Below the pieces are notes generated by a model. It searched no databases. It had not been told where the DNA came from and saw nothing but the letters and a program-made list of their open reading frames with translations. A stretch of DNA of 60,779 nucleotides, taken from the NCBI GenBank assembly GCA_001938485.1, contig MQRK01252387.1:1-60779 (forward strand), given 5' to 3'. Both the position numbers and the translations under genes were made by a program. Within the stretch, counting starts at the first letter, position 1. Every line of letters begins with the position of its first letter. The stretch is from Girardia tigrina. Its lineage: Eukaryota. Shown piece after piece: positions 27,501-59,561 of this stretch.

Positions 27501-29643
27501 TAATATATTGTATCAAGAAATTATAATATATTTTTCCAAATTAATGAAAATTAAATGAAATTTTTAAGTTACATAACATTAATTTTATTGAAATAAATGT
27601 AAATAAAAAAATATTACGATGAAAAAAAAATGTTCATGAAAATGATTTCATGGAAAATGTTTACAAAGACAAATTGATGATGAAAGAATTTTCGATAAAA
27701 TTCAACCGGGTAAAGAAGTAATAACCTTGTATGAGCTTATTGAAGAAGGAGAGTTAGAAGAGTTTCCAGGAATTCGGAAAACGGGTGTTTGTGGCATTAG
27801 TTAGTTTTAATAAATTATACCTTTTAAAGCTGGATATGGTTTTTATTTTGTGACATATTTTACCACTGTTTCTTTCAAAATACTTTCAAATAATTTAGAA
27901 ATAAAAGATAAAGATTTCAATGTAAAGGTGAAGTTTCTTTTAAGTAGAACAAGTCTCAATGGAGAATCAATAGACAAATGAAGAATGTGCATCAAGAGGT
28001 GAAATGCAAAACAAAACAAGCAACACCAAACGAGAGTCGTCCCACTGTAAAACTGCTCCTATTTAGTTATCTTCCTCCAAATCAAGGAAGCAGAAACGTA
28101 ATCTATCAAATGTCAAAAAAATATTTTAACTTGTCATATTGAAACACATTTGCAGCATATAAAAATTATCAAGAGACATTAAATATTGAATGTTTGGTTC
28201 GAGGAATTATAGCCGGGAATAACAGTGATAAATCATCATAACAATTTTAGGCCACAATCTGACAAATTCGGACTCATTTTTTTATTTGAATTTCAACTTT
28301 AATTTCTAGGATCGAATGTATTAATGATCCATATGAAATTATGATAAAATGGATCAAAGATTAATTTATCTTTAAACATAATGTATATTTATATGGGTAC
28401 GTATTATTTCTCCTTCGGTCGTTTCTCCTCCCGGAATATGTATTATTTAATTTTTATACCTCATAGATAAATAACTAAAATCACTTGACTTATATTATTT
28501 TATCAAATGAAACTTCAAAATATTTATTCATTAATTGAACAATACCTTTATAATAAAATGAATATTCAATGACAAAATCTTAATATAATAAATGCATTGA
28601 TCAGCATATTTGGTGATATCCAATTCCATGGAGGTTTATTCCATTTAATTAAATTTTTTAAGAAAAAATGAAATGAATTAAATCTATTTTAAAGATATTA
28701 CACTGATTCAGAATTTTCTCTCCTTGCTCGTATGGTTCCAGCTTTAGCTTTTGTTCCTTTCAAGGAAATTAATAAGGGGTTAAAAACATTAGTAAATGAA
28801 TTACCACACGAATTAATGCGTTACTAAATTGTTTCGGGGGTAATTATGTTGGTCGTTCCATACAAGCCGGTCATCGTTGAAAACCTCAATTTCCTCATGT
28901 TATGTTATGAGAGAACACTGAATGATCAAGTTCGTACCAATATTCATGCAGAAGGAGTAAATCGTGCTTTACAAGCACATTTCAGTGTAAATTATCCATT
29001 ATTATGGAAATTCATTAATGGTTGGAAAAGGATACAAAACAACAAAATAATACCAAAGTGAAACAAGTATCAGCATACCGATGAAAGCAATTTAACAATA
29101 TTCAAATTTTTATTTGATAAAATAACATCTCCGTATTCGTATTAGTGAGCACACACAACAAAGTCGGTCGAGTAAAGTCTGTGAGCATGTGAAGTCGTGT
29201 CAAAATAGTAAATCAGCAGATATAAAGGAGAATTTTTCAATTCTGACTTCGAATTTCGATACGCATTCTGAAAGACAGTTTTGTGAGTCACTATTGATTA
29301 GACATCACAACCCTTTAATAAACATTTAAAACGGAAATAGCATAGCTGTCACAATTTTAAATAAATTTTATTTAACATTGCGATAAGTAAATAATTTTTA
29401 AATTTGAATATTTATCTATGTATTTTTTACTTATTATATTGTATCAAATTATTTATATTTAATTTTTAATTATATTTATAATTTATCAAATCTATTTAAG
29501 TGTTTATAGTTATTTCTGTCCTATTTAGTTTCGTTATTTTTTGTCAATTATTAATTTGATTTTGTAACGAAATATGTAGTGAATTGTGAAATCATAAATT
29601 GTTACTCAAAAGATATTTCTTCATCTTCTATTATGTTAAGTCA

Positions 29644-32600: not shown

Positions 32601-35600
32601 TTGTTTTTTATTATTAAATGGTTGTTTTAAAAATATTAAGTTCCTTTTGTAGCTGTTACAGAACTTTTTTGACAACTTCGTAAATGATTTTTAAATATTT
32701 AGAAAAAAAAGTTGACAATGGTTTGGGTATCTTTCCTGACCATTTTACAAGATTAGTTTGAGAATAAATGTTTTAAACAATTTTATTTATCGTTCCTGGT
32801 TGTTATGTAAATTATTTAAATTGTCGACAAAATTAATTGTAAAAGAACTTAATCATCATGACATGTTTCAATGTTTTCTTAATCTAAAAGACTTTAGGAT
32901 TTCTAAAAACTTCGAATAATCTAATAAATTTTTAAATTATTAAAATCAGTTGCTCTAAAAGAGCCTTATAAAAACATAAATATAAAAGTTTAAGGAAATA
33001 AGGTTCAAGCTTGTTCATGAAAATATTGTAAACAGTATAATTAAATATAGAAATAAAAGTATTGTAGCAGTAGTCCCCCAAAGACCGATTGCAGATTAAT
33101 CTTTATTTAACCCATTTCTCTCTGTTGAAACATCTCATATATACTTTTTATAGCTCTTGTAATTTAAATCTTTATTATGATGTTTCAAAATTAAGTTTAT
33201 GAATATCTTTTCTATAGTTATATATTTATATGGAATAAATAAAATATTGCCTTTCATTTAAAATTTTTATTTCAGCTCGGATGGATGCGCGATCCCCCAA
33301 ATGTCGACATGGTTGAGATAGAATATAATTCGGATGATAAAACTAAGGTAAATTTTCAATTGTCTTTTTAAATGGAAATAGTTAAACTTTAAAATGTTTG
33401 TTTCTTTAATTTTTTGTTTTCTTTTTATAACTCAAAGATACTCTGTGTGCTTATCAAAATACTTTTCAAAATATGATCATAGGACATGTTCTAATTATGT
33501 TTTTTACATCACCATCAGTACTAGAGGTTTAAAAATTAATTAGACTTGATTATAAAATGGTAATAAATATCAAATGATATCTTAAAATAATAAATAAATT
33601 TTTTTAAACTACTATTAAATTCTGTACTGACCTACCTAATGATATATAAATTATATAATATTATATTAATTAATTTGAAAAATAAAAATCAATAAAAAAT
33701 GATCTAAAATTTCATTTTGTTTTCTTGGATTTTATAAGAATAGTTTTTATTAAATTTCTCGACATCATCCATCAACTAACGAAACGATTTCTTTTTGATT
33801 TATCGGAGTCATCCATCATCGCATTCCTCCATCAAATCGCAATTACCAGAACGAATCAAATCAAAATTCATCTCAAATCCAATTACAAGTTCCAACATCA
33901 AACAAATAACTTCACCAAAAGATAATCTATCTCGTGTTCTCTTTACCAAACATTGATCATCCAATTTATTACTGTAAAACCAGCCAATAACAACACTCCG
34001 AAACATTACAACAATACTAAGTAACTAATTTACATTTTATCAATTTTCTCAACTCGTGATCCTATCAATTTTTTAATCCTTCCGTTACTGTTTATTGTTA
34101 TTAAATAGAACTAAATTATTTTAATCTATTTTTTGTTTATTATTGTAAGCAAGTTTACTGATCTTGATCCATCAGATCCATCAACTTGATTTCTTACAAA
34201 TTCAAATATTTAAATTAATATTTATATATTGCAAAAATTATTATTGCTTATTGTAGTGACCTAAAGTCACTAATATATTTGTATTTATATATAAAACTAG
34301 TAAATAACCCGTCATGTATGACGGGTAAAATTGAGAAAAGAAATTTCATTTTTTAATTTTAATTTGAGTAATTTTGGATGTGGAACAGATGCATTAAAAC
34401 AAAGANNNNNNNNNNNNNNNNNNNNNNNNNNNNNNNNNNNNNNNNNNNNNNNNNNNNNNNNNNNNNNNNNNNNNNNNNNNNNNNNNNNNNNNNNNNNNNN
34501 NNNNNNNNNNNNNNNNNNNNNNNNNNNNNNNNNNNNNNNNNNNNNNNNNNNNNNNNNNNNNNNNNNNNNNNNNNNNNNNNNNNGAATTATTATTAATATA
34601 AATATCTACTTACAATTGTAAGTAGATAATATGAGCGTTAGTGAGGCAGGCAGGCAGGCAGGCAGGCAGTGAGTGACTTGGGCTTTTATAAGATAAGATG
34701 AAATATGTATATAGAAATATAGATAGTAAATATAATAAATATAATCAAATAAAAAAATTTATTTTTTAATAAACAAATAAAAATGAAATGCCTTGGAGTC
34801 GTATGCGTTTGTAACAACTGTTGTTGGATCTGCTGTGATTTTTCTGTCACAAACTGAAAATTTATTCGCCTGTACGGAAGAACAGAGTGAAATCCAATTG
34901 CAAATTCATCAACAGAAAAAACCATTCGAAAATTACAATTTAAGAAACAATTTCAGAACATTTTCTACCTCGAACCTCAATTTCTACAATTCCGTTGTTA
35001 TCCATCATTCTCTTTTTCAATCAACTAACAGAATCTCAACAAATATTTCGTTATATTCTAACATTATTCCCTTTTGCGAACACTTATGATTTACCAGTAA
35101 GTTATTTATATTTTTTATAGTGTATAAAATTTTAAATTTTATATATATATATATATTTTTTTACGTTAAAAGAGCTCATTGAAACATTCGTTTCAGTTAG
35201 CTCTTTTACACTTATTACGGAGTATGAAACTTTGAATTATGTTCAATCTGAATACTACTCTGCAAAAATTTGAACTCCCTTGGAAAAATCGTCTTTTTAA
35301 TATTTTATTATCATTGTCACACTGTCTTATGTAACGTAGTTTTTTATTTATGACTATTGTGGGTAGTCTTATATCTCATTTATTGTATTAAAATATGATT
35401 ATTTTTTAAATATTTGGCACGGATTTCATTAGGAAAGGGTTTCTTTGTTAGGAAGATAACGACCAAAAACATACATCAAAACATAGTATGAATTATTAAG
35501 AATCAAAAGAAACTTTAGATACTCTTAAGTCTATGGAATGGAAATCACAATCGCCAAATGCAAATACGATCGAACTGTTAAGGAATACGCTGAACCGAGA

Positions 35601-38600
35601 AGTATGGAATCCATATCTAACTAGCAAATCTCATTTGTAGGAATGTCTTAAACAGGCTTGGCAACGCTTGCGACCAGAAAGTGGCCAGAATTTCCAGAAT
35701 TTATGGGGTCATCAACAAATCAAAATGCTTACATATTGGTGAAAAGCGGATGAACAGACTTTTTCGTTGTTTAAGTATTACTGTATTATATGTTTCGTAA
35801 TAAATTATTTCGATAATGTAATTCCAAATAAATAAGTAATATATGACGGTTTGAGTACGATAAATAAATCGATAAATGCAAAAAAGGAAAATTTTTCCAG
35901 GTGAGTCAAAACTTTTGCATATTCATATATAATGAAATGAGTATTTTATTTTTAGTGAAAATTTTGGAAATATGAAACCAACTTAAATTATAATTTTCGC
36001 AACAATTTACTCTAAGCTAACCCAAGAAGAATAATTCATAAAATTGTTTTTTTTTATAATTTTTCTTTATAACACAAAAATTGTAAGATCAAATAAAAAG
36101 AAAACTCTTTTTCATATAAAGAACATTTGTTGGCAATTATTTTAAAATAGTTATAAAAAAGAAATGTATCATAAATATATTGGAATAACAAATGAATACA
36201 AATATATCAAGAAACTATTTTAAAATAAATTCTAAATTTTTATATTTTCAGAGGGGTTACTTTAGATTCCATTTTGTTTTATATAAATATTATTATACAC
36301 TTAATTCATTGAATTTTTGAGAGCATACTTGGTTACTTAGTACAACTTCGAAACGAAACAAACTAAGTATCATTTCATGAATAACTGTATAAAATAGGTC
36401 TAGTAAATGCTCATTCAAAAAAGGACGAGGAACGGTAATGATTTAGACATTATCTTCTCTTTAATCAACATTTTGATTTCGATTAATACATTTATTTGCA
36501 ACAGAAATAGAATCGAAATTATAACTATTTATTCTTCATTTGTAATTTTTTATAATCATTTTACAAAGTTAATGGAAAAGGAAACATTAAATTTTAATTA
36601 ATTAATTTTTAATAAATATTACCTTTAAAAAATAATAATCAATTTCATTCAGTTTCCTTTAATTTAAATTACAAAAAACTTAGATTAAGTTTTTTCATGT
36701 ATTAGGTTGTCCTAAAAGTTCCCGGTCAATAATGAAAATAAATTTTTTTTAAATTTCTTTTTGGCATTCAATATTTGATATTGATATATATATATATATA
36801 TATATCGATTTATTTATAGCATTATATGAACTGCGAGATTACAAAGCTTGAAATCCGTGTATTGCTGCGTCACTATTGAAAGAAAGGCTTGAAAACACGA
36901 GATGCTGCCAAGGCGATTTACAAAGTTGAAGGTACACAAACGGTCGGAAAAACTACGGTAATTGATTGGTTCAAGCGTTTCAATAAAGGCAACTTTGACT
37001 TGAATTACAGTCCTCGTTCTGGACGACCAACAAAATTGTATAACGACATGAGTCGGACATGAAGCCTTCGTCAAGCACTCGCGATTTGACATTTAAGCTT
37101 GGAGTTGGCAAGTCAACCATGCATTGGTATTTGAAGCAGCTTGACTTTGTGCACAAGAAACCGCGTCAAGATCCACACGAATTCACCAAAGTACAGGCTG
37201 ATAAAAGAGTTCAAATTTGCCAACAACTGCTACAGAATCCACGAGATGACCGCTTTTGGAAACGAATTGTGACGTCAGTCGAGAAGTGGGTCTACTTGGT
37301 CATGGACCCCTGTATAATAGCATCTGGATTAACAACTGAATATCGTGTTAGACAACATGAGGCCTACGCTCTGTAATGACAATATATGTGCCAAATATAT
37401 AATCTTGTCTTCCTCAATGAAAGTCAGATTTTCCACCAAATCACCAATGCAGACAGTGATTTGTAATCACAAATAATATATTATATACACTATACAGAAC
37501 AAATTACAATAATTAGGTACAATTATTATACATATTAGGAATTGAATTTAATAACTTTTCTCACGTTTGAGGAGCATGCGGATGTTGAATTGGTGTCTGT
37601 TACTGTATTTTTTGTCATGATGTTGAACATACTGCGTGAAATCTGTGACAGAAGATCGTGACCATTTTCGCTGCCGAGAAAATATATTTCAGTGTCGTTT
37701 TCTAGCACCAGTTTCATAATTTCCGTGAACATAGAGCGACTGGAAGAAGAATGGAGAAGCATTTTTGTCAGGTTTGTTTTCTGTTTTATTTCAGAGAAAA
37801 CATTCCAAAATTTGATACAGAGGAGAAACAGATAGTCCGAAGGATAGGTGAGACCTCCTCTGTTAAGTGATGTCAACAAATCAGAAGTAGTCTTTGACAA
37901 TTCATCAGATTCCAGCTCGTGGTTGACAGAGTTATTACTTTTCAGCAACTGCTCACAGCTGCTGCATTCAGGTCTGTGAAGAATGGTTTTTGTAATATAT
38001 CCACCTACGTAGAATAGAGCACAGGCGTCTGAATAGGACGGTGCTGTGTCAAATGTCAGAGAGGATACAATTTGTTGCACAGTGGCAGCATTTCCGAATG
38101 GTTGTTCGTCTCCCTCAGCGACANNNNNNNNNNNNNNNNNNNNNNNNNNNNNNNNNNNNNNNNNNNNNNNNNNNNNNNNNNNNNNNNNNNNNNNNNNNNN
38201 NNNNNNNNNNNNNNNNNNNNNNNNNNNNNNNNNNNNNNNNNNNNNNNNNNNNNNNNNNNNNNNNNNNNNNNNNNNNNNNNNNNNNNNNNNNNNNNNNNNN
38301 NNNNNNNNNNNNNNNNNNNNNNNNNNNNNNNNNNNNNNNNNNNNNNNNNNNNNNNNNNNNNNNNNNNNNNNNNNNNNNNNNNNNNNNNNNNNNNNNNNNN
38401 NNNNNNNNNNNNNNNNNNNNNNNNNNNNNNNNNNNNNNNNNNNNNNNNNNNNNNNNNNNNNNNNNNNNNNNNNNNNNNNNNNNNNNNNNCAGAAATTCCA
38501 GGAATTCAGTTAGATAAAGGAGCTTCCAATCAGCCGAGGAGCGAATAGGATCACGATACAAATCCCGCTTGTGTTTTCCGATGAAGGGTGTTCTTACATT

Positions 38601-41600
38601 CAGAATGCGCCAATACTTGATGATCGTTTGCAGGAATTCGGCAGTAGCACGCCTTTCAGCATTGATCTCAGGAGCGTAGAAGGAGAATCCTTGAGCCGTT
38701 GATTCACAAAAAACACTGGCAGAATGTTTGACGGATGTCCTCTGAAGGTTGGTTGGATTCAGAGATGCTGCACGTAATTTATGGGCAATTTTAACGGATT
38801 TGTCTCTNNNNNNNNNNNNNNNNTCTTCGATATGTTGAAAGTTGGCAGTGAACGATGATGATTGTGGAGAAAACGGAGGACACACAAAAACTTTCTTAGA
38901 TTGGAAATTGTTGTAAATATTTTTTACATTGTGGGTAGTGTCAAAATTCAAATATAGAGGAGAATCAGGATCACATGGATTGGGTATGGATGACTGAAGA
39001 ATACCATTGCAGAGTTTGTTGGTGTAAAAGGCACGATTAACAGAATAATTATCCAAACAAACAATGAGAACTCGGAATCCAATGGAATGAATAAATTGTA
39101 TTGTGGATAGGAATTTTTCATGAAGGAAATCAGTGTTTAATTTTCTGACAGGAAACAGGGATACGATATCTCTGTAGTCACCAGCTATTGATGAAATCAT
39201 GAAACTGAGCACTGTGGATGCTAATGTGTCAGAGTTTTCACTGAAGCCAACGAATTTTCCACCGCAATATTCTAACTTTGCTGGCTATGTAAATCTCGTC
39301 AATAATGAGAGTAACATACCGCTGTTGTTCATTCAATGTGGCGAGTCTCCTTTGAAAGTATGGCTTATTGGATTCACCGCTCTTCATCTCAACTCCTCGA
39401 GATAATTTTCGGAGAGTGTTGATGGAAGGAAGACACAAGATATTCTGATGAAGCAAAGCACTGTAGCACGATGAACTCGTTGAAAATAAAGTTTAGGACA
39501 AAACAATGATAGCGGGAGAGTATCGGCGGGCATGTTTGCTGGATTGTAAAAGTCTCAGCTGCTCGATTTGAAATTCAAGTTGACGAAGATTGGTTTCTCC
39601 TTCAATGTTGTCAGAGGAATCGGGAACATTCTCACACTGCCTCAGCAAGCATTGAATGGCTATATCGACCCAAGGACAGTTGGTATTTGATGAAGGATTG
39701 TCATTCAACCATGATTTAATAAGAGACATGAGGTTCAGAACTTGGCTGAAATATACGAGTTTTCTCTTAGATAATAAATGTTGATATCGAGAAAATGGAA
39801 CAGGAGCAGAGTAATAACCACTGTCACTGATCGATCATTTTGCACTTGGATTGAAGCATCAATTTTAGGAATATCCTCCACGCTCGAAATGATGCAAAGT
39901 AGCAAGGAGGAATCATATTTGATAACCTGAAAGCCATCAGGAAGATGTTGCTCTTCCATTAATTTCCTGTGGAGCTCTTCAAGGGAATGGATTTCGTCGT
40001 TATTCACGAATTCCTGATAGATATCATCATTACGCTGCACTTCACGTAAATATCTCTCCTCAAACTTTGAGTTTGACTGTCGGCGGGGAGGTAATTGTGA
40101 TGTATAATACGATGGAAGATCAGGGAACTTGGATGGAAACGAATCATCTTTCAGATATCTAAAACAGCAATCATTCAATAACAATGAACACAGTAAAAGA
40201 AAAGGTATTTTACAAAGAAATAACTTACCTTTTCAATAACTTTCTTGGTCTTTTATTCTTCCGATCAGAATTTGTATCTCGTGTTTCTTCCACAAAATCG
40301 TCCTCTTTAAAATGTTTGGAGCAAATGCGGGAATTACTATTCGGAGTGAAGTTTTCACGTGAGAGACGATGAAGCTACTTCTGGAGTAAGACTGGATTGT
40401 TCAGGGGAAATTTGTGTAAGGTTATACCTGCTATATCTTCTTCAAAGGAAGATTTATAACCTGTTTTACAGCCAGGAGCTGCACACTTAAAACCCATGTG
40501 ATGTGAAAATGAGAGAAAACAATGAGGCTTTTTCGTACAATTTCCATCAACAAATGAGAAGAGGCATCACGCACCGACCCTTATACCTGAGGACTCAGGA
40601 CTGATTCATCATATCATAGTTCACACACATACACACAGAGGTTTTCAATGAGAATGACTCACACAAGAATGATAACACACACATCTGTTTGTACTTTTAA
40701 ATATGAGATTGAACAAGTAGTTGAAAACGTATTTATATACTTCATATCTATAGGCCTCATGTTGTCTAAAGCGAAAAAATATTTGAAGTGGTTGTTAGTC
40801 CAGATGCTATTATACAGGGGTCCATGACTTGGTCAACCACAACCGAGACAAGGGATTGGTTCCACCGGGTCAAACAACGCTGTCAGCTCCAAAACAAGAT
40901 CGATTTGGCTTGAAAATCATGTTTTGCGTCTGGTGGAACTTTGAGGGAGTCGTGCACTTTGAGTTCATTCAGAACAGCTAAGCCATCAAGGCAGAGCTCT
41001 ATTGTTAACAGCTGGACCGTTTCTATGAGAAGTTCAAGGAGAAGTAACCTGCCTTAATCAACCGAGAACGTGCACTGCTTCAGTAAGACAATACCAAGCC
41101 GCATACCACCAAGAAGACCACGGGCAGGTTCCAAGAGTTGGATGGAATCGAAATCCTGCCGCATCCTGTTTAAAGCCCTGATTGCGCTCCATCCGACTAT
41201 GGCCTCTTCCGATCCATGCAACACTTTTTTAAAGGCTGCCGATTCGAAGCATTCGATGAAGTTGAACAAGCATGTCAAGAGTTCCTCAATTCGAAGCAAC
41301 CGGAATGGTACTTTGACCAGATCCGAAAGCTTGCAGACCGTATACAGAAATTAGTCGAAAACTTTGGTCTATACTTTGAAGATTAATTGTTATTTATTTA
41401 AAATAAATTCTTGCACAAAAAATTGTATTTTTCATTCTTGACCGGGAACTTTTAGGACAACCTAATAATAAGAAAATTAAGACAAACACCCAAAAACAAT
41501 TTATATATGGTGTGTTCAATAAGTACCCGGCCTGACAAAGAAAACGAATTTCGAAAAAGGATATTTTTAGTACACAACAAGCTTAACGTTTGTAGGCATC

Positions 41601-44600
41601 ATTTTTCAACAAAATGTTTATTTCGATTCACACACTTTCGCTAACTAATAATCAACTAACAAATGTGCTTCCGGAGGATATGCGGCGAAGAAATCTTCCA
41701 CAGCAATCTTCAAATCGTCTTTGGATTCATTTTGGAAACCTATAAAATGCTTTTTTATGTGTTTAAAGAGGTGAAAATCGTTCGGTGCCAAATCTGAGCT
41801 GTACGCGGATGAATCACAAGCAATAGTCCAACACTTTCAATTGTAGCCCGAGAAATACCCGTAGATTCCACTGCATTTCTTCTTCTGATACACAAAGAAC
41901 TTGATAACGCTGCGATATTTGATGTCTGAAATCATTGCACTGATGAAAATTCAAAATTTTACAATAGAAATTTTATTACGTTTGGTAAAATAAAACTGAA
42001 ACTAAAACTTATTTTAATTTACAAATAAAATTAAAATTTGCTATTACATTTTTTACATTAGGTCGAGTACTTATTAAACGCAACATGTAGCATAAAAATG
42101 AATAAAAATTGGAATTATGATGAGAACTTTTTCTACAACTTATAGTATCAATATATTCAATTCTGCTATTCTTGATGGAAAATTTGAAATATCAAAATGT
42201 CGACAAGTCGACATTATACCTTTATATATCGTATATATGTAAACAGGTCGAAACTCGGGAGCAACGTTCGTGTTTAGGCTATTCGATAAGTACAAAGCTC
42301 GTGAATACCATTTGTTTAAAACCAATAAGTGGTTAACTACTTATCCGTATAAAAATCATATCTTATATCAATGTTAATATATGTCAGAAGTGAATACTTT
42401 TCGTTGTATATCTTTAGTCTTGATTTGTTTCTTTTCGAAACTAAATTGTATTTATTGTTTCTGTAAAACGATATTTCTCTAGGAAAAAGACGATTATTGA
42501 CTCGAAATTCATCACAAGAAGGTCATTCATTTATCGGTCGTTGTGGTGGTGAATAATCAAAAAATAGATCTTGGATTTATGTTTCATAAAATTTCACATA
42601 TGTCAGTACTTACTTCGTGAACACAATTTACTCCTATATTTTAATTTCGATTCTGAGGAATATTTTAAATTTAGTATCTAGAATTTTGTATGTTGAGTTC
42701 AGTATTTCCGACCCAAGATGGAAAATTGGTAATTTTGATGTTCGAGCTGATTAATTGTTCGAGTATTATTTACATTTTGAATTACAACGTAAGATATAAA
42801 AAATTTTAATTATTGAAATATTAAATCTTTCAATATTTGAATATTAAAAGTTTTGAGAAAGTAAAAAAGTTTAACTACATTTTAAATAAATTAAGTAAAT
42901 CTTTTTAATATTGAGTCTTGTGAACGCAAGTTTAGTATTTCGAAAATATAATTTGATTAAAGCTTTTTTTATACAACTATTGGACATGTTTCGATGTTTA
43001 TATACATCATCATCAGCAATTTTCTATTGAATTGTTTGAATAATACAATTTTTCACAATTTTAATAAATATAATTTACTTTAAAAAGTAACGAAAAAATT
43101 AAACATTTTTATTTATTACCCAATAATATTTTCATAAATAAAAATTTTTAATTTTTTCGTCACCTTTTAAAGTAAATTATATTTATTAAAATTGTGAAAA
43201 ATTGTATTATTCAAACAATTCAATAGAAAATTGCTTATGATGATGTATATAAACATCGAAACATGTCCAATAATTATATAAAAAAAGCTTTAATCAAATT
43301 ATACTTTCGAAATCTTTTTAAATATAACCATTTTTAAATTAAAATAATATTTAGATAAAATTTTATAAATTAATAAAGAAACATTTTAAAAATAAAATCT
43401 GAAAATAATTTCAATGTTATTAGCAAGATCACAAATTCCTTGAATCATTTATTTACAACACAAACAGAATCATTCTCAGTAGCAATTTTTGCGGGAAGCA
43501 TCGTTCTTGATTAATAAGTTTTTTGTTTATATATTTAAATCTTTGATTAATATTAAATAATATTAACTTTTAATTTCTCAAAATTTTATTGGATAAGAAC
43601 GCATAAATTAAATTTTAAAATAAACATTAGTTTTTAAAATATATTAAATTTAATAAGTTAAAATCGTTTTACTAAAAAATATTATTAAAATTTATAATAA
43701 TAAAACTTTTTAATTAATTAGTATTTAAACATTAGTCTCATTAAATTAATTTCATTATATTTAAATAATTAATCAATAACATATCAATCCCATCGGAGTA
43801 GGAGAGTCACAAATCTAAACAGCATACAAACAACAAACTTACAACATTCAGAATTTTCCCTCCCAAATATATAAAAGAAAAATTTGTTCTAAAATTTGTT
43901 TAAAACTATTTATTACCAAAATCCTTATCAAAGTACGAAAGCTTTACTGAGAATCATCCCAAATACAATTCAAACTGTCATAAAAATGAAAATGTGGAAA
44001 ATGATATTGGTGTTCTTAATATCGATATCATTCAGCAAGATACAGTTACATTTCCGGTCGGTGCCACAAACAACACTGATGATATTTCCGAAAATAATTC
44101 TGCTTTAACTTGACGACAATTTTATATTACCATTGAGATAATATCCATTAATAATTCCGATATGTTTCCACAACATCTACAATTTCAAACAGTTATTACC
44201 CACATATATATTGAGTAAGTGATACAATATTCTATTTGCGATTCCGATTCCATAAGATTGTATAATCAGAACAATTCTACTGTACTAGATATCCTTCCCA
44301 TTTATCCATAAATGTAAAAATACTGTTAGGTTTTATATTTTATAGTTATTATCGAAGTATTTCTTTTCTTGTTTTTTTTCGTTATGCAGTGAAAGCCGCT
44401 TATAGTGCCCACCGCTAGAGTGGCCCCTTGATGTACTTGTAAAAACCTTTAATGCATGCTCTGGCGCTGACTTTGACTTATAAACAGAACTTTGGATGTA
44501 ATGGCTATCCTGTTACAGTGACCAAATCTGGCTGGACGAATGAGGCCACTTCAAGCGGATTTTACTGTATCATCTTTCCAAATGAATTTTTTGTTCTTAT

Positions 44601-47600
44601 ATATTTATATTTTAATTTAAAATTCCATTTTTTTCTTTATTAATAATAAATTAAATTTTGCAAATTCTAAATATTTCTTTAGTTCATTTTAATAAAAGGG
44701 AATAATAAATTAAACAAAAAATATCCGCAAAAATAAATTTGAATATTATGTATATCAAAGAGATATTTTCATACAATATGTTATCTTAAATCAACATTCG
44801 TCCTTTTGGTTTATTTTTCAATTAGTTTTTAGTACTGAATTTGAGTTTATTTTTATCAACAAGTTTTGATAATTCTTTTTAAATTTGTACTAGTGAACTT
44901 TCATAGTAATTGAATCAGTATTCTAATATTGTTTTGTCTATTTTTTTATAGATCTGTTCGTTGACATTGTTAAAAACTCTGAAAAAATTACTTTTACAAC
45001 ATTTATTATTACAACAAGGAGAGTTGTCTCCGTTACAGCTCTCGGAAGATCGTTCACAAGTCGAGATTCTAGTTCGTGAATTTATATTTATATTTTCTGA
45101 TTTTTTATCATGATTATTCGAACAAATTTTCTTTATTTCTAAAATCTAAAATCTTTGAATAGAATTTGAATTTTTACATTTTTTAACATCGAAATTTTAT
45201 TTTCATTTAAAATTCGTTAAAAATATTTATTAAATTTCATTATAGAGAAATATTTTTAAATATTATTTATTTAAATTTGTCTTTGAAATTTATTTTATCT
45301 GGCCTAAAACTATTAAAACTATATATTAAAAATATACCAATTTTATTATTTTATAATTTTGGATTTGTTTAATAATTAAAATATCAAATATTCAAAAATT
45401 ACTAACTTTTTAGAAATTACTTATATTTTAAATTTAGTATTTTCTACTTATTATTTCATAAACTTAAATTTTATTAGATTATTAACGGATATCGCCAATT
45501 AGTATCACCAACCCAAATAGTATCACGACCCAAATAGTATCACGACCCAAATAATATCACCAATTTAAAAAATTTTTAGTGATACTATTTAAATTGTATC
45601 ACGACCCTATTAGTATCACTATTTAAGTTTTTAAAACTCACTTGAAAAAAAATCATTAATTTTTAAAATCATTTAATTAAATTGTTTTAATATTAATAAG
45701 TATTCCATTTTAAAAATTCTTATGGCCAACCGATCATTTACAATCGCTTTCAAAAAAAGAAGTAATCAAGTTTATGTTGCAAGGCAAAACGTGTAATGCT
45801 GCAAAACAGTATTTCAAAGTTAAAAACTGGGAAATATATGAACATTCTATGTTTCAACAGTGGTTTAATAACAAAGACAAACTTGCTAATCAAAAACCAT
45901 CATTGAAAAGAGCGTTGGGAGCAGGAAAGAAAACCAGTTTTGGAACTATAGAACAAATTATTTGCGATGAGATAATAGATCTTAGAATACGAAAAATGAA
46001 AGTTAGTCGGAAGTATATTTCTGATAGGGCAGTGGCATTGAGTAAAGAGTTTAATATTAAATTAAAGGCTACTGGAAATTGGATAACAGGGTTTATGAAG
46101 AGAAATGGATTTACACTTAGGCGAACTAGCAATTTAACAATATTTTCAGACTCTGACATAATTTAACGTGCTGTTAATTATATGAAATATTTAAAAAATC
46201 GTCTTCCTTATTTAAATATTAAAAAGACTTTAATGATGGATGAAACTGCAGTATTTTTTGAGGATGCCAGAACAAATACTGTGGATTTACTCGGAACACG
46301 CCATGTAGTAATGACATCAACTGGTTTTAGTTCAATGAGAGTAACAGCACTGATTTCTTTTGGGTAGTTGGTAGGAAGGCAATGCCTTTGGTAATCCGAA
46401 AAGGAAAGGATGGAAGTCCTATTTGTAAACAAAATCGTGTCTTGCATACTACTCAATCAAAATCCTGGGTTAACCAAGAATTAATTATAAATTGGATCGA
46501 CCATATGTTTCCTTTGATTGATTTAAGCAACGGTAAGTGTATTATTTGGGATTCGTGTCGAGTTCATTTAGGCCTCCAAATAAAAGAACATTGTGTTAAG
46601 AGAAATGTTGAAATGATCACGATCCCAGGGGGATGGACACCTTATCTACAAGCAGGAGATATAGGAATTTTTCGTTCCTTGAAGGATTTGATATATTTTC
46701 GTATTAATGAATGGAAGAACTCTGATTCTGTTGTTTATACTAAAAATGGTAATCCAAAACGACCATCGAAGGAATTGGTTAATTCATAGGTCGGAGAATC
46801 TTTGAATGAATTGAAAACCAAAACCATAAAAAACTCAATAATATCATCAGGATTTAGTTCGAACCCTGACGATTGGCATATAGCAAAGCATGATGTGTAT
46901 GGTAGAAAGTTTTCCGAGGCTTGGGCTGTTTCAAACCAGATTGAACAATTTCCCTACGAGTCTACTTCCGGGGAAGATGTAGATGATCAGGATGTAGACT
47001 GTTTAGATAATGATGATTTAGAATGTTTGGATGTCGTTAATGAATAAAGTATTATTGATATTTGTTTTCTTTTTTATTCATATTTTGATATTTTTGTTAA
47101 TGTGAATTGAAAGCACCAAATAGTATCACGACGCAAATATTATCACCAAAAATTTTAGTGATACTATTTAAATAGTATCCGTGATACTATTTGGCGACAT
47201 CCGTTAATTACATAAACTTTTCAAAATTTTAATTTTGTTCGAATAATGAATTAAAATCAACATACCACATACCAACCTTTTAAATATTCCTCACGTATTA
47301 TTTTGAACTAAATTTTTTCAACCCCCTATGGGAACTTCATGGACGATGGAATGGTGTCCAACCCGGCCATTCAGTTGACAAAGTATTTAATACTTCCTGG
47401 AATGATTCAAGAAATATACAACGGTCTTTTGTTTTTTTCATGATTTTTTACATTTGTTCTGTACAAAAAAAATCAAAAGTGTTTTCAAAAATTTTGTTTG
47501 AATCTACTTAATACATATTTGATTTAAAACCAAAATGTTCCGGAAACAAATTGATTGCTTTTCTTAATCAGATTAGATCAAGCATAATTAATTGTGCAGC

Positions 47601-47661
47601 ATCAAACGGAACGATGAAAGGGATGGATGATGTTCGAAGCTTAATTAAAGTGCCGGATGAG
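6527..47661 (+). CDS. CACNA2D: Voltage-gated calcium channel alpha-2/delta subunit, internal portion. Exons 6527-6576, 12462-12545, 18290-18337, 24707-24784, 29872-29946, 33276-33347, 47572-47661; start and stop not found in window
   Basis: Each exon is bounded by AG/GT and they join in frame: (G)YFGHIHAMGAVSNIID-DVSTVLSHTMVFNDETYYVWHNIYLDSL-GMGLMTSLTMPVYNRS-GNGSFLGLLGTDMTVAFMDDLVPHDK-LGPTGYAFAINTNGYIIFHPELKNQ-LGWMRDPPNVDMVEIEYNSDDKTK-IRSSIINCAASNGTMKGMDDVRSLIKVPDE. This is colinear with the alpha2delta-1 sequence as recalled ([91 protein letters not shown]). Paralog number cannot be assigned. Confidence 0.93.
6650..6778 (+). CDS. Candidate phase-0 cassette exon, 43 aa (KYSVSVHRHEIHRGCKLEESEFRLGLIFVNEDELQNPEDFPHP)
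   Basis: tttgtgcag acceptor and CCG|gtaggg donor; 129 nt, stop-free, GC higher than flanks, phase-compatible with neighbouring exons; no counterpart in canonical alpha2delta. Confidence 0.5.
8871..10135 (-). mobile_element. mariner element (cecropia/Hsmar1-like), defective
   Basis: TIR TTAGGTTGTTT.(A/C)AAATAATGTCG, TA TSD; WIPYEL, IVTCDEKW, YSPDLSSADYH motifs with frameshifts. Confidence 0.92.
10380..11075 (-). mobile_element. 5'-truncated RLE-clade non-LTR retrotransposon (NeSL/Utopia/R2-like) 3' end
   Basis: Zn-knuckle remnant ETPMHIINGC...KHDKI, restriction-like endonuclease FDILV..IIEVKSPWD...RACEKY, FVVGSLGRW; 3' (TTAAA)n tail. Confidence 0.8.
11300..12360 (-). mobile_element. Decayed mariner
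   Basis: MEKIEIRTIIK*EY..GTSASETTRKIN N-terminus, GKVKK.DNWIPH, RIVTCNEKW; boundaries approximate. Confidence 0.7.
12462..12545 (+). CDS. CACNA2D: alpha2delta exon DVSTVLSHTMVFNDETYYVWHNIYLDSL
   Basis: ttattag|...|gtatgt; W.N.YLD motif at the start of the Cache domain. Confidence 0.92.
12860..12990. repeat. Low-complexity (TTA/TTTA)n tract
   Basis: Almost only T and A. Confidence 0.85.
13755..15046 (+). mobile_element. mariner-family element with a distinct TIR, defective
   Basis: TIRs TTAA(C/T)ATGGTAA.AAAGTTTTTT..CCGTTACTC with TA flanks; HPRSGRP, WVPYQL, DETW, HDNARPH, PY*PDL. Confidence 0.9.
15980..16530 (-). mobile_element. Internally deleted mariner fragment
   Basis: HTH region NIRKFIYYNWKRGLST...GEGTVGLRTC..W..KF and C-terminal GINKLPGRWQRCI..NG.Y; terminal ~75 bp recurs at about 50877-50952. 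Confidence 0.7.
18290..18337 (+). CDS. CACNA2D: alpha2delta exon GMGLMTSLTMPVYNRS
   Basis: ttttcag|...|gtttgt; LGL..T.T.PV.N motif. Confidence 0.92.
18431..19697 (+). mobile_element. mariner element (cecropia-like), defective
   Basis: TIR TTAGGTT(A/G)ATGC.AAAGAAATGTCGTTTTT, TA flanks; HDNARPH and HPTYSPDFSLTDYHLF. Confidence 0.92.
20944..21732 (+). mobile_element. Non-autonomous Helitron, family B, (TTTG)n, containing a Harbinger end
   Basis: Homologous to 52794-53433 and 56120-57198; ends ATGACGGGTCTTTTTCTAG|T. Confidence 0.7.
23150..24060 (-). mobile_element. Decayed CR1/L2-like LINE reverse transcriptase 3' part
   Basis: Degenerate .SKGF (KAFD), GYAD (YADD) and W..L terminal motifs in the correct order; many stops. 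Confidence 0.5.
24707..24784 (+). CDS. CACNA2D: alpha2delta exon GNGSFLGLLGTDMTVAFMDDLVPHDK
   Basis: attcag|...|gtacgc; Cache-domain LGV.G.D motif. Confidence 0.92.
25640..26240 (-). mobile_element. mariner 5' fragment (mellifera-like)
   Basis: MKENKLHFRYLMLFYFKKAKNATQARNKLC..VY; TGDEKQI motif downstream. Confidence 0.75.
26250..27471 (+). mobile_element. mariner element, same family as 8871-10135, defective
   Basis: Same TIRs; near-identical peptides (ENENLKALVEANPRTTVR, HDNAQPH, HPPYSPDLSPADYH). Confidence 0.93.
28395..29090 (+). mobile_element. Mutator-like (MULE) transposase remnant
   Basis: ALAFVP, RTNIHAEGVNRAL...PLLWKFI, matching the MULE RTNN..EGW..P.+WKFI motif. Confidence 0.75.
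29649..29797 (+). mobile_element. Non-autonomous Helitron, family A (short copy in a TA tract)
   Basis: TATAAAAGCCCAAGTCACTCACTG 5' region; 3' hairpin CCGTCATACATGACGG then CTAG|T. Confidence 0.75.
29872..29946 (+). CDS. CACNA2D: alpha2delta exon LGPTGYAFAINTNGYIIFHPELKNQ
   Basis: tttag|...|gtaaca; diagnostic GY.FAI..NGY...HP motif. Confidence 0.95.
31955..32680 (+). mobile_element. Decayed mariner related to the 36702-41465 family
   Basis: NPHELAEAK...FWKHTVTFDEKWIYLVN, QQDNPK.H; degenerate 3' TIR GAACTTTTTTGACAAC. Confidence 0.7.
33276..33347 (+). CDS. CACNA2D: alpha2delta exon LGWMRDPPNVDMVEIEYNSDDKTK
   Basis: tttcag|...|gtaaat; P..D..E.E motif. Confidence 0.9.
34297..34698 (-). mobile_element. 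Non-autonomous Helitron, family A with (CTGC)n microsatellite
   Basis: A|TCTTAT... 5' end, CCCGTCATACATGACGGG hairpin and CTAG|T 3' end; internal palindrome ATCTACTTACAATTGTAAGTAGAT. Confidence 0.8.
35415..35925 (+). mobile_element. Tc1-like transposon 3' remnant
   Basis: EDNDQKHTSK...MEWKSQSPNANTIE resembles the DNDPKH..WPSQSPDLNPIE motif; terminal GAGTCAAAACTTTTG. Confidence 0.65.
37301..40826 (-). mobile_element. P-superfamily (THAP9/Galileo-like) DNA transposon inserted in a mariner
   Basis: 36-bp TIRs CATGGACCCCTGTATAATAGCATCTGGA(T/C)TAACAAC with 1 mismatch; 7-bp TSD ACTTGGT (37294-37300 and 40827-40833); 19-bp internal inverted repeats; THAP-domain transposase inside. Confidence 0.93.
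37535..40497 (-). pseudogene. THAP9/P-element-like transposase, disrupted
   Basis: THAP domain MGFKCAAPGCKTGY...HKFP...*...RICSKHF with the conserved Trp changed to TAG; 70-nt GT-AG intron 40159-40228; core motifs LPSINTLRKL, LIIDEIY, CLDNYSVNR, FDTTHNVKNIYNN, YVGGYI, NRGGLTYPS; further stops and frameshifts plus an N gap. Confidence 0.9.
41506..42088 (-). mobile_element. mariner-derived deletion derivative (MITE-like)
   Basis: Imperfect TIRs (ATGGTGTGTTCAATAAGTACCCGGCCT vs AGGTCGAGTACTTATTAAACGCAACATGT); YSSDLAPNDFHLFKH peptide. Confidence 0.7.
42909..43309 (-). mobile_element. Penelope-like fold-back insertion (inverted pLTR plus ~30-nt tail)
   Basis: Near-perfect ~175-bp inverted arms (about 42938-43115 / 43135-43312); unique ~30-nt extension on one side; direct repeat AAATCTTTTTAA at 42897-42908 and 43310-43321; hammerhead motif in the arms. 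Confidence 0.75.
42979..43020 (-). ncRNA. Minimal type I hammerhead ribozyme (PLE-type)
   Basis: Minus strand ATTG-CTGATGA-T-GATGT(ATATAA)ACATC-GAAAC-AT-GTC-CAAT: catalytic boxes, stem II, palindromic ACATGT stem III, GUC cleavage triplet, stem I ATTG/CAAT. Confidence 0.8.
44387..44567. mobile_element. pogo/Tigger-type MITE
   Basis: Termini CAGTGAAAGCCGCTT...AAGCGGATTTTACTG; 181 bp. Confidence 0.6.
45485..47204 (+). mobile_element. pogo/Tigger-like DNA transposon with disrupted CENP-B-HTH/DDE_1 transposase (about 45722-47047)
   Basis: TIRs ACGGAT(A/G)TCGCCAA(T/A)TAGTATCAC with TA TSD; subterminal CCAAATAGTATCAC repeats; KATGNWITGFMKRNGFTLRR, MDET, WDSCRVH, IPGG.TPYLQAGD; in-frame stops. Confidence 0.92.
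47572..47661 (+). CDS. CACNA2D: alpha2delta exon IRSSIINCAASNGTMKGMDDVRSLIKVPDE
   Basis: taatcag|...|gtaaga; matches IR..MI...R.L.K..DE. Confidence 0.88.
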
Positions 47662-48519
47662 GTAAGACTATTGTGACTGTCAATTTACTTTTGTAATATT
47701 TATTCAATCGGCCTTTGTTGTCATTTTCAAATATTCTACAGTATTTATTATATTATTTTACTTTTTACGTATTATTACAAAAAGATTTTTATGCGTTGTT
47801 TAATGCAATGTCACAGAATTTGGCATTTGTGTTCCTCAGTCTTATTTCATTATTTGAAGGAAATTTTGGATTTAGTTTGATAATTACTTCCAAATTTCGC
47901 TATTAATAACATTTAAATTAATAAATAAATTGGACAATTAATTTAATGCACCTCTTTGATAATTATTCGTTCACAGAACGAATTCCATTTTCCATCAGAA
48001 TTTATTCCTCACAAATTAAATTTGTTTACTACAAAGTCGTATATTTGAAAATTTTTAATTTAAATATATATATTTGTTTTAAGATTTATTTACATTTTTA
48101 TGGCTGAAAAAGCACTTGCATCGCTCTGATTGTAATTCATGGGTACAATGTCCTCACAATTGCCAATAGAATGAGCTCAGGGATGAAACAATGAGGATTG
48201 CAGCGCCACCAATATTTGCTGGCCATTTCTTCAACATTTCTGAAATCAAAATACATCTTTTCTTCAAAATGAAAGTTTTTAATAACTTTAATAATGATTT
48301 AAATGATTTCACCATAAATGTTTTACTTCTTTTACATAAAATCACATTTTTATGACCGAAAACTACTGATATGGATCAAATATACTCAAAAGAAGAACTG
48401 TACATCCGAACAAACATCATTTATCATAAATGTATTCTGCGTCATTTTCAATCACTAGCTGTAAATAATCTCACACTTTATATAGTTTGTCTGAAATTAG
48501 TCGGTGGTATGGCTAGTGA

Positions 48520-48870
48520 ACCTCTCTCCGTCTTTCAGGTATGAAGCTGACGGTGCCCTCATTTCACTCCATATAATGCAGAGATTGACATGATACTACT
48601 CAGGTGGATAACTGACATCATTGCAATACCGATCATTAGGATTGATTCATCCCATATCATTGCGATGCTATCTCACCGTAGACTACTCCATACAGCCTTC
48701 ACACCCAGCTTTGTAGGTGGCCTTAACAGAACGGATTACTAACCCGTTAAGAATGCAAATCGCCGCCGGCATTCTGAAAAAATGACTCAGCACAGCTTTG
48801 GACACTTTAGACTATGTATGTTTGACTGGTTTATATACAGTTTGCCAAAGCTAGTGATCCTCAACTTGGT
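48520..48870 (-). mobile_element. Decayed RTE-like LINE fragment
   Basis: SISALYGV resembles the RTE LLYG.E motif; GC-elevated; weak. Confidence 0.35.
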
Positions 48871-51837
48871 ATGGCTAGTAATTTTTCAAGCACCAATTTG
48901 TCTACATTTTCATCATCATTGAACATTTTTTACACTTATCTTATTTACTAAATTAACAAATATAACAATCGATCCCAAATATATAAATCTTTAGAATAGA
49001 TTACATTGAAGGGTACTCCTGGTTCTTGTTTCTTCAGGAACTCTTGAGTTTTGCTTGTCAGAGAAGGTTTAGCATAGTAAATTGAAGAAGAACACCTTTC
49101 AATCTTTTTTTTCTAAATTTCGTTTCATGAAAAAACAATTTTATTAAGTAATAAGTATTAAAGTGTTTGTCTAGCTTATGTTACTGCCATTCAAAATTTA
49201 GCAGTTGAGAATCTGAGATTACGCTTTTTTAAGTTTTATTTTCAACCTATTTCAAAAAGAGATCAAAAGAAAACGTATCGTCATTTACGCAATATATACG
49301 TTCACTCTCTTGTTAACGAGATTTTTTCTAATTGACATGACAATAGTTTGCTTTAGTTTTCATTGTTGAGCATTAAGTTAATGGGAAACCCAAAATATTG
49401 CAAATGTATCATTATTGATCCTTATCGTACATGAAAATTCATGCAATTTGTCAGTCACTATTTCAAAATATCTAATTCTGCGCAATAAACGCTGTGGAAT
49501 TCTAAATATTTCATGGAGTCCTCAAATTAGGTATACATTCAACTCGAGCCTGACAAATTTCATTATTGGCAGATATTGACATATGTTTCTAGCAGATCAT
49601 CATACACTTCGCTTACATGTTTTTCAGGAAATGTGAATAAATTCAAATTAAAAATTGATATTTTACATTATACTTCGCAGGTAGTGTTAGAATGTACATA
49701 TATAGACCCTTAAAACGCCACATACACCCCAAACGCCAAATACTTTTTTTAAGTAATCTCGTTAGAATAATTCATGACTTGGAAATAAAAATAAGAAAAA
49801 TTTAAATCGACAGCCTTTAAAGCTCTTTTTAGCAATGCTTGTTACAGTAGAAATGGTACAGTCAATAGTCGGTTGTGGCACTGATAAAAAGTACTGGGAA
49901 CCGGTTATTGCCTGTTCCGGAGGTTTAAGATTTAAAATATTACTGTAAAAAATGACACAAGCTAAAATTAAAATAAATCTGAAAACTGTCTAAATTTTTC
50001 CGGTTACACTAAGAAAAAGATCCTCCCATTTATGAATGATACTGTTGATGTTGTTTTGCAAAAATTCATCGGGTCTGGACTCGAAGTAGATATTATAATA
50101 TCTTTAAGATCCAGATACAGATCATGGTCCTTTTTAAATGGAGGCCTGGCTTCACTTAAGACTTTGGCGTAAGTCATGACGTCTTTTACTTATTTCTGTG
50201 TTTCATATTGACGCATAAACACCATTTTCCATCTTCCTTAACGATTCAGTATGGGAACCAATCTCTAAGTCCGCATGTGGCACGATGTTTTGAAAGATCT
50301 TTTCCTTGTTTCCTCCATTAGGCATTTTAAGAGAACTCACACATTTGATAGAACATTTATTACATTGACAATTTTGATCATCTCTATGACAATCAACAAC
50401 ATTGCTGTCACTTGAATTCATCACTCAATGTTTAATACTTCTCATCCAAAATCTGATATAACTTGAAGAAAATTATTTTATTTAAAATATTTAACTTAAA
50501 TTTTATTGGCTAAAATAAAATTACTTTTTTTAATCATTTTTAAACATTAATTTGATTTTAATTATTTTTAAAAATTTACAAAAATAAAATGAATAAAATT
50601 ATTTAAAATTTACAATAGTAAAAAATTAAAAATTTGAATATTAAATCTAAATTTGAATAAATTAGTTTCAGATTATAAGAATTAAAATATTAATCATCCA
50701 TTTGATTAGGAGAGGCACAATCACAAATCAACACACGACATTTAAACATGTAAACACTACACAAAAACATCAACACACCAAATATTCCTCACAGGGTACA
50801 TGGGGCTCGTAAGCATCAAAATTTGGGAAATATCTCATTTATATATATCTCATATATATATATAGGCTTAGGTTATATTTCATTAACCGCGAATTGCATA
50901 GAACTAAATTTAGAAAGCTTTATTCATCGGCAGAAACTTTTGAGCCAAACCTTTTTATACATTTTAAAATACACAATTTTGATTTTTAAAGAAAGTTATA
51001 TTTTTATAATATTTTGTCTTTAGATACATACGTATGAAAAAGTCAGAACCTATGCTTACTATGGAGTACCTTATTCAACATTTGGGTTGGTTTTTAAAAA
51101 TTATTAGAAATTATTTTAATAAATAAAATAATTAATTTTATTTTCATTCAACAAAACAAATTGACAGAAAAATCAAAACCAAAATTAACAAATGATTAAT
51201 ACTTGAAAATTGTTTTTTTTCAATTAATGATTTTTAAATTAATTTAATTCTATTTGTTTAAATCTGATAATCTTCAAATAATTATTTTAATTAATCTCAT
51301 TTGTTTAAGGGAAAACATTATTTTGTTTTAATTAATTGTTTTCAAAACAACAAAAACGAAGTGAGTGTATTACAAAAAAAATTTTGTTTTGAAATTTATT
51401 TATATAATATTTACGATAGTAAAGGAAATTAATTAAAACAAAAAAAACATTCATAGATTATTTATTAATTCGTTTATTATTTTTATGGAAAAAATCATTA
51501 TAATTATTTATTTATTTGAATAATTGATTTATTTTCATTGTAGCGTAATGTTGAATATCAAGATTAATTTTTAATAATAACAAAATTAAAAGCAAGGTTG
51601 TAAAGAGTTTTGTCTTTCCATTATTTACGACTTTCTTGGTGACACCAAGTAGCGTTACCATTAATCTGTCCCCTCTGAATGGCTTTACTGTAATATAGTT
51701 TCCATGNNNNNNNNNNNNNNNNNNNNNNNNNNNNNNNNNNNNNNNNNNNNNNNNNNNNNNNNNNNNNNNNNNNNNNNNNNNNNNNNNNTATATATATATA
51801 TATATATTAAGATTTAATGGTAATTTATTTGACACAT

Positions 51838-51935: not shown

Positions 51936-52356
51936 TATTAATTAAAATAAAAGATTAAAAAAATTTTTCTTCAAAACTGTAAATTCAGTTTCATAGTTAA
52001 CTTTCTCTATTTCTGAACTTTTTAATGTGATCTAGAATCGAGCTATTCCTACACAATTGAGTGTACTCAATTCTAGAGCAGAGATGACGATTTGTTTCTC
52101 CAATGTACAAGGATTCACACTTGTGACATTTAAATTGATATACTAGATTAGCTTGGATACCCGATGGAGTTTTTGATTTATTTGAGAAATATCTCGATAG
52201 TTTATTAGTTAAAGATCACCCGCAAATTAAAACCCGATTAAAAAAAGATTAATTGCGTAATAGTCAATGTGCCATATAAATGACTTGTAATTTGATGCTG
52301 TAATGGCGAAACATGTTTTGACACATAAAGAACTTTTTAAATGGCGTTTGTTATTC

Positions 52357-56119: not shown

Positions 56120-57198
56120 TCTTCCTTCCTTCGCCGAAAGACTCCAGGAAACCGATGAAATCAACTGAAAACCGTGCTGGTCGAACGATTGTTAACTCAA
56201 CACCGAATTCGAATAATGCCTATTCGGATGATTCCTACAAGGAATTTTAGGAGAATATTTTTAAAAATACTAATAACATTAATTCCATTGACAAATGACG
56301 ATTTCTATCACTTATTTACTAATCATATTTCTAAAAATCAATTTAGGTTAAATTTGCAAAATTTCGTTGTCATCTGAATCTCGGTTTGTCGGTCAAGCTC
56401 AAATTTTACTTTGATCATAAATATGCTGATAAAATGCGAAATAGTGGAAGAACAGGGAGTCAATCAGCATAAAATTGAGGTCAAAATTTTAAATTTGGTA
56501 TGTTGAATTTTGTATGTTGAGTTTAGTATTTGGAAATGTCTTTCTCCCACCAGATGGAAAATTGATATTTTGGATGTTCACGATAAATAATTATTCGAGT
56601 ATAATTTGCATTTTAAAGTACAGCATTATTTAAAAAACTTTAAAAATATCAAATCGTTTCAAATTTTAATATTAAAATTTGAAATAAGTTAAATAATTTT
56701 TAACTAAGTTTTAATTTAAATAAATGTTCTTTCTTTAAATAAAATGATTTTTTAAATAAAATTAATATGTAGATAAGATTATTACTAAAATTACAAAATT
56801 TGAACTTTAAAAATAAAATCTGAAAATAATGAAAAATTTGTTCGAATAATTGTTTATTAAAAAACATTAACTAAAATTTATCAATTTAGAACGATGTCGA
56901 ATTACGAATTTGCTGAGAGTTTTCCAAAAGACAATTCTAATTGTATTGAAAATAAAAGGTCAAAAATCCGTGTTGGTTTTCTTAATAACTCTGCATAGTC
57001 CGCATCGAGACGGTTCTGTCTGTAAAGCGCCTTCGCCAAAAGGCGCCGGGAGTCGACTTAATTGACTGACTGTTAAATAAACACCGAATTCGAAAAAATA
57101 AATAATAAATTATAATAATTACGATTTAAAAATTAAAGTAGAAACTTTCAAAGATGAAAATTCAGCTCACCCGTCATATATGACGGGTCTTTTTCTAG
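56120..57198 (+). mobile_element. Helitron family B copy, 5'-truncated, interrupted by another repeat at about 56483-56990
   Basis: CCCGTCATATATGACGGG hairpin plus CTAG; blocks shared with 21100-21732. Confidence 0.7.
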
Positions 57199-59049: not shown

Positions 59050-59561
59050 GTAAATTTTTATTTATGATTATTTATGTATGTTTTATTTACGGTTTTATTT
59101 TTATTTTATGGGGCATTTAAACATTTTTATAATATAAAATAACAAAGACTTACGATTAAAATTATTTTAATCTATAAATAATATTATTTTTCGCAATTGC
59201 AATTTGCATCACCAACTTCCGTCGTAGGAACGGGAAGAAAAAAGAAACTGATCGAACATAAAATATATTGACAAATAACATGTAAACACGATCCGAATCG
59301 GCAGAATAGAGATGTCTATCGGCATAATCATTGAGATGGATACTCGCGTATTGTCTGGGCATATTTGAGTTGATGATTGAGAGTTTTTTGATGTTGCTGA
59401 CTGTAATTCTGATTTGTGTCATGGTTAATTCCGTTTTTTATTCTGTTCGCCAATTTGCTTTAGTTAAACAAAAACATTAATTCTGTTCATTCATTTAATT
59501 TCATGAATTTTTATTTAAATTGATTTTTGTAATTTGGTTTCGTGTTCTTTTAAACACCACA

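Follow-up and report, generated by a model that had tools for sequence, protein, structure and literature searches.

The insertion at 42897-43321 of the DNA examined here (a stretch of 60,779 nucleotides from Girardia tigrina, contig MQRK01252387.1 of assembly GCA_001938485.1, hereafter the window) carries two oppositely oriented hammerhead ribozyme motifs, one intact and one with a G-to-U change at core position G5 (G5U). How was such a structure made, and does the change in one of the two motifs reflect selection exerted by the host gene? We consider it highly probable that the insert is a head-to-head stub of a Penelope-like element (PLE), which likely arose in a single event, with reverse transcription starting at each of two staggered nicks, and that G5U is likely to be neutral decay. 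Throughout, comparisons with published systems refer to the available portions of the cited papers.

Structure of the insertion and its target

Self-comparison of the window revealed a 377-bp palindrome with arms that are 96% alike. The palindrome, its one-sided tail and the 12-bp direct repeat had been described in the first-pass annotation, and all three were borne out by alignment of the arms and by a 12-mer count in the assembled contig: the word AAATCTTTTTAA occurs only twice in the whole window, on the two sides of the insert (Table 1). At most 2 nt of the left copy of this duplication and at most 4 nt of the right copy match the element. Two linked marker sites, at 42977 and 42974, define the G-G haplotype of the left arm, while the right arm has A-A at 43273 and 43276 together with a GTCACC marker, and shows rare changes at about 43146, 43236 and 43304. 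The insert is a short, 5'-truncated, head-to-head remnant of a common Penelope-type element within a probable intron.

Table 1. Coordinates of the insertion and of the features around it (window positions)
Feature	Position	Strand	Remarks
Host intron (inferred)	33348..47571	+	14.2 kb; GT/AG phase-0 exons
Old AT-rich host repeat, split by the insertion	42660..43400		other copies 70-82% alike, one at ~56500-56850
Target-site duplication, left copy	42897..42908	+	12 bp; last 2 nt also fit element tail end
One-sided tail	42909..42936	-	28 nt, left arm only
Left arm	42937..43116	-	5'-truncated pLTR / element 3' end; G-G haplotype
Intact minimal hammerhead motif (putative)	42979..43020	-	left arm; pattern match and published min-HHR features
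Inner-end overlap of both arms	43113..43116		TTAT, 4 nt; read against family copies
Right arm	43113..43313	+	without tail; inner end ~21 nt longer; A-A haplotype
Inverted arms	42937-43116 / 43134-43313		180 nt each, 96% complementary, 7 differences
Second hammerhead motif	43230..43271	+	sense to host pre-mRNA; G5U at 43236
Target-site duplication, right copy	43310..43321	+	first 4 nt also fit pLTR end

When the insert and one copy of the duplication are removed, the flanks align unbroken to other copies of the host repeat. The alignment comprised 15 copies, namely 14 genomic ones and the one at 56.6 kb in the window. Most of them have a single related AAAT-T-run-AA word at the insertion place, and three of the 15 are without the stretch that holds it. 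The repeat does recur near 56.6 kb without the insert, as noted earlier, but the suggestion that this copy provides an empty-site control has to be given up, since it is a roughly 70% identical paralogue and not allelic. All of the aligned copies are paralogues, at 70-82% identity, and none is an allele.

Other repeats were observed in the window. At 59518-60549 (minus strand) an LTR-type element has left a piece of its integrase core (rve, E=4e-9), and two inverted transposase-like copies (8853-10140 and 26245-27489), which we take to be mariner-like, are 88-94% alike and lie 16-18 kb apart. An open frame at 10541-11104 (minus strand) carries a motif that we take to resemble the endonuclease end of a non-LTR element; Pfam returned no match for this frame. 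Short 17-bp tandem units at 45513-45622 and 47116-47149, 1.5 kb apart, are perhaps the two ends of one repeat. GIY-YIG-like fragments at 29126-29326 (plus strand) and 52000-52215 (minus strand) are akin to Penelope endonuclease ends by weak Pfam matches, and a loose pattern detected no intact hammerhead in either.

Element family and fold-back copies

Searching the genome with the left arm gave 573 candidates, of which the 40 scored were 97-100% alike, and a 20-mer from the hammerhead had 7,038 matches at no more than one mismatch, a number that may include allelic duplicates. The locus is an ordinary member among thousands of decaying stubs. Longer copies of the family extend upstream into broken frames, RT first and GIY-YIG after it, for which the Pfam matches lay below the cut-offs (RVT_1, E=1.3e-6; another RT fragment, 3e-5; GIY-YIG, E=0.0064). 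Judged from these frames, the family is an EN+ Penelope-like element with RT and GIY-YIG domains, and the insert itself keeps no ORF body. From the domain order and from its motifs we take the family to belong to the Penelope/Poseidon clade. The Penelope-like origin proposed for the insert is thereby upheld by its inverted pLTR and one-sided tail and by the RT and GIY-YIG frames of the longer copies. We also considered a non-LTR retrozyme, an identity that needs head-to-tail tandem units, and rejected it since the units here are head to head.

Starting from the ATG of the hammerhead palindrome, a reading frame runs across the tail without a stop and, by analogy with the elements in the available parts of PMC3846280 and PMC11167929, is likely to be the start of the element ORF. 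With a narrow search pattern and in this fragmented assembly, we found no full-length family copy, and none of eight candidates had an ORF that ran past the tail in frame. The repeated ATG in the hammerhead core of the family opens, in addition, a 14-codon frame that overlaps the main start; the three common family variants within it are, by eye, all Val/Ile swaps. Of 148 family ends, 9 fall at a third, minor point some 10 nt inward of the pLTR end, which may be an additional start site or result from homology in TA runs.

The element type, the architecture and the hammerhead motif are already known. Pen2a_Av/Pen2 of Adineta vaga likewise has head-to-head pLTRs with a one-sided tail (31 bp there), an 8-10-bp duplication, an overlap at the inverted junction and an ORF start within pLTR and tail, as appears to be the case here, whereas our insert is without the ORF body (PMC3846280). 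In Poseidon PAc of Anolis, as in the present family, the tail lies between two end points, the targets are AT-rich and the hammerhead overlaps the ORF start (PMC11167929).

To place the insert among its relatives we used 50 fold-backs, 7 of them from left-arm matches, 14 from a tail-independent search and 29 from a search that required the tail; second-strand duplicates, repeats of the window locus, two duplicate loci and 14 host-repeat loci were left out. One arm is tailed and the other tail-less in 39 of these, a single fold-back has two tails, and 10 are cut by gaps or unresolved. All seven loci with both ends resolved among the 14 from the tail-independent search are one-tailed. The tail measures 28-30 nt and is on one arm. 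Duplications of 10-15 bp were seen at L013, L098 and L099, compared with 12 bp here, and most other ends lie in TA runs. One-tailed inverted architecture is typical according to the available part of PMC8557442.

Host gene

Four exons with GT/AG phase-0 boundaries were recognised on the plus strand, at 24707, 29872, 33276 and 47572. The exon at 29872 matched alpha2delta-1 in the PDB (E=0.0015) and led to two full-length proteins with VWA, Cache and VGCC_alpha2 domains, one of which maps in order to the plus-strand exons at 12462, 18290, 24704, 29872 and 33276. Matches to downstream exons are weaker than those upstream: the candidate at 47572-47661 was the top of 110 candidates, yet it ties with the best of 205 opposite-strand controls, and another fitting frame lies downstream of the insert at about 51024. 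The host gene was not named by Pfam over 18 whole open frames, nor by PDB searches with the single exon frames 24638, 47572 and 33276; the frame at 23458 had no homolog in a search and was left out of the evidence. On the order of these exons, the insert probably sits in an intron of 14.2 kb that belongs to an alpha2delta-like gene, and the G5U motif would be sense to the transcript. The earlier placement in a calcium-channel intron is supported as to the intron and the sense orientation of the mutated copy, but the gene would be that of the auxiliary alpha2delta subunit and not of the channel pore.

Hammerhead motifs

The left arm contains, on the minus strand, a 4-bp stem I, CUGAUGA, an unpaired U, a 5-bp stem II, GAAAC, the palindrome ACAUGU and GUC. 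Its core (CUGAUGA-U-GAUGU/ACAUC-GAAAC-AU-GUC, 42983-43016) is the sole match to a loose pattern in the window. A scan with the Rfam hammerhead models returned no match at E<=1, so that the identification as a ribozyme relies on the motif together with the published features of minimal hammerheads (min-HHRs). Those of PLEs are all present in the left arm: the CUGANGA/GAAA/UH core, the base after A9, G10.1-C11.1 and a palindromic helix III. As in the metazoan PLE examples of PMC4209133, the core is intact, the base after A9 is unpaired and helix I has 4 bp, while helix II has 5 bp here against 6-8 bp there. The complete minimal hammerhead claimed for this strand is accordingly retained as a putative motif. 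In the plus-strand copy of the core (43234-43267) we see the reported CUUAUGA, a G>T at 43236, and at this G5 position the right arm departs from the min-HHR core. Pairs of min-HHRs on opposite strands, 100-700 bp apart, have already been described (PMC4209133).

For a hammerhead dimer, the duplex of the palindrome is predicted at -6 kcal/mol. Folding of the insert, in turn, buries both motifs in the arm-arm duplex with a mean pairing probability of 0.96-0.97, and the predicted hairpin has -218 kcal/mol versus -157 with the hammerhead fold forced. On either strand the complementary arm is transcribed before the motif. In the pre-mRNA the arms would thus pair into a 180-bp hairpin in which neither hammerhead would fold, and the locus may have been drifting since. 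Such a hairpin might have been co-opted for small RNAs or editing and so regulate the host gene, a proposal consistent with the 180-bp, 96% duplex predicted on either strand. However, there are dozens of similar stubs and no mark of conservation on the insert, and incidental production of small RNAs, although plausible, is not a function; we consider co-option extremely unlikely.

Mismatched arms and the mechanism of insertion

Just past the cleavage site and 3 nt apart, the two marker sites show tight linkage across the family: of 144 arms, 69 are A-A, 65 G-G, 4 mixed G/A and 6 other. The insert joins a G-G left arm to an A-A right arm. By marker pair, 35 of the 50 fold-backs are concordant, 6 discordant and 9 uncallable, which leaves 6 discordant among 41 callable. 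Double recurrent change would be expected to yield 0.016 discordant fold-backs in these 41, and random pairing 19.9 (p=6e-6 for so few as 6). Divergence between the arms of a fold-back was 3.4%, compared with 5.1% between loci (42 loci), and both arms had a rare allele in common in 3 of 44 fold-backs versus 1.6% between loci. With 35 of 41 concordant and arms more alike than in random pairs, most fold-backs stem from a single source or lineage, and two distinct pLTR sequences contributed to a minority. At L020 the arms show a subfamily difference along their whole length. The tailed arm is G-G in five of the six discordant loci (L001, L020, L091, L095 and L110, not L094), and a seventh discordant locus found by haplotype search, L127, is oriented opposite to the majority, like L094; in so small a number of loci, the bias could reflect mosaic tandem sources. 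Our literature search, which covered main texts of mostly open papers, found no study that counted haplotype mismatch between inverted PLE arms.

The only useful clue that the G5U insert offers is that its arms are of different element variants, and its two halves were likely copied from two templates. We envisage the following sequence of steps. An endonuclease would nick the two strands at positions about 12 nt from each other. Of the two 3' ends, one would prime cDNA at the start site at the tail end, where 2 nt fit the target, and the other would prime at the start site of the pLTR end, which lies 26-29 nt from the first and has a fit of 4 nt. The second priming would be on a different pLTR copy, either in a second RNA or in the second repeat of a tandem RNA, and the two short cDNAs would then join at TTAT. 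When each arm is followed in the 5' to 3' direction, starting from its copy of the duplication, the sequence is in both cases antisense to the element, as expected of first-strand cDNA primed at each nick. For head-to-head Penelope insertions in general, we lean somewhat towards two RT events, each at its own nick, with its own start site and on a separate pLTR template.

L1 twin priming offers a comparison. There, both DNA ends prime cDNA, and the cDNAs join by microhomology within the target duplication. In that system a single RNA is primed at two places that do not overlap, whereas both arms here copy one stretch, so that, unlike in L1 twin priming, two pLTR copies or a fold-back are needed. 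Closer to the present family, the Poseidon PAc protein, a predicted dimer, nicks and extends both strands in vitro, with RT starting at two sites that bound the tail (PMC11167929). It is reported to prime without homology to the cut DNA, in contrast to the 2-4-nt fit seen here, which may be AT-rich chance, and the part of that paper covered does not trace inverted insertions to a pair of templates as we propose.

Self-priming or snap-back on a single template, the model of PMC3846280, does not, in the available text, predict arms of different subfamily haplotypes; one arm would later have been gene-converted, or a second insertion would have taken place. The concordant fold-backs (85% of those callable) fit snap-back equally well, the rare alleles common to both arms speak for it, and the genome holds thousands of copies that could serve as donors for conversion. 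However, one duplication encloses the entire unit, whose arms share 4 nt where they meet, the right-arm markers span ~115 nt, and the difference at L020 runs over the full length. Conversion between the arms of a palindrome would, moreover, be expected to erase differences and not to create them. We regard this explanation of the insert as unlikely, and prefer priming from both nicks on two templates.

The mismatched arm, or the whole palindrome, could also be a chimera of a fragmented short-read assembly: there are 255,254 contigs with gaps and thousands of near-identical copies, the junctions are known from the assembly alone, and contigs from four sequencing runs over 41500-51500 were mostly other repeat copies, in which neither the junctions nor splicing could be seen. 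We consider this very unlikely, given the unequal ends, the seven differences, the duplication and the collinear flanks. In addition, a rare change and the right flank are both no more than 45 nt from the A-A marker, and the left flank is no more than 70 nt from the G-G marker, distances that fit inside one read length.

Selection or decay at G5

It had been suggested that the sense copy was inactivated by selection, since its self-cleavage would cut the alpha2delta pre-mRNA. G5U is indeed on the sense arm and private to the locus: the three-part haplotype of the right arm is found in 33 copies, and among those listed only this one has G5U. Inheritance from a dead source lineage is ruled out, as G5 is kept in 32 of the 33. 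Origin at the locus is also what selection predicts, and the right arm has three changes rare in the family, G5U among them, against one in the left. The chance that at least one of three changes would fall in the 13 core bases of 180 is, however, 0.20.

Genome-wide, 60 copies had another base at G5 (A in 35, T in 17 and C in 8, by hand count) versus 2,945 intact. A control C in mirror context outside the ribozyme, located with the same anchors, was changed in 149 versus 2,945 intact. The resulting odds ratio is 0.40, for a control that consists of one base only and in which inherited variants may be counted. Measured against this one base, G5 is not lost in excess genome-wide, and the shortfall of changes would be compatible with purifying selection on the source elements. 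Each intronic fold-back has one sense arm, and purging should therefore raise core damage in fold-backs, but we found no excess (8 changes in 409 core positions versus 32 in 1,924 downstream non-core positions, 86 arms); this test is weak, as not all of the loci are intronic.

Published observations point in both directions. Fast intronic ribozymes lower splicing (Fong 2009, cited in PMC10919898), and Xenopus introns are depleted of retrozymes, according to the available part of bioRxiv 10.64898/2026.07.22.740005. On the other hand, splicing was unaffected by slow ribozymes (PMC10919898), a single min-HHR was without cleavage in the part of PMC4209133 available, and the Poseidon motif cleaved only when the element's protein was present (PMC11167929, likewise in part). 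Since changes at G5 are rarer than at the control base, the fold-back cores show no excess and the sense motif is predicted to be buried in the hairpin (pairing probability ~0.97), the suggestion of selective inactivation finds no backing here and seems to us most improbable. G5U is likely neutral decay rather than the outcome of host selection.

Implications

The count of mismatched arms bears on how Penelope elements come to form inverted repeats with a one-sided tail, and it speaks for priming at both nicks, each on a template of its own. If the two-event reading is true, about one in seven fold-backs would record double priming genome-wide, in the form of arms of different subfamilies, which would argue against snap-back as the only route. 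Given gene annotation, the family is also numerous enough to examine whether hosts remove hammerheads that lie in introns on the sense strand.
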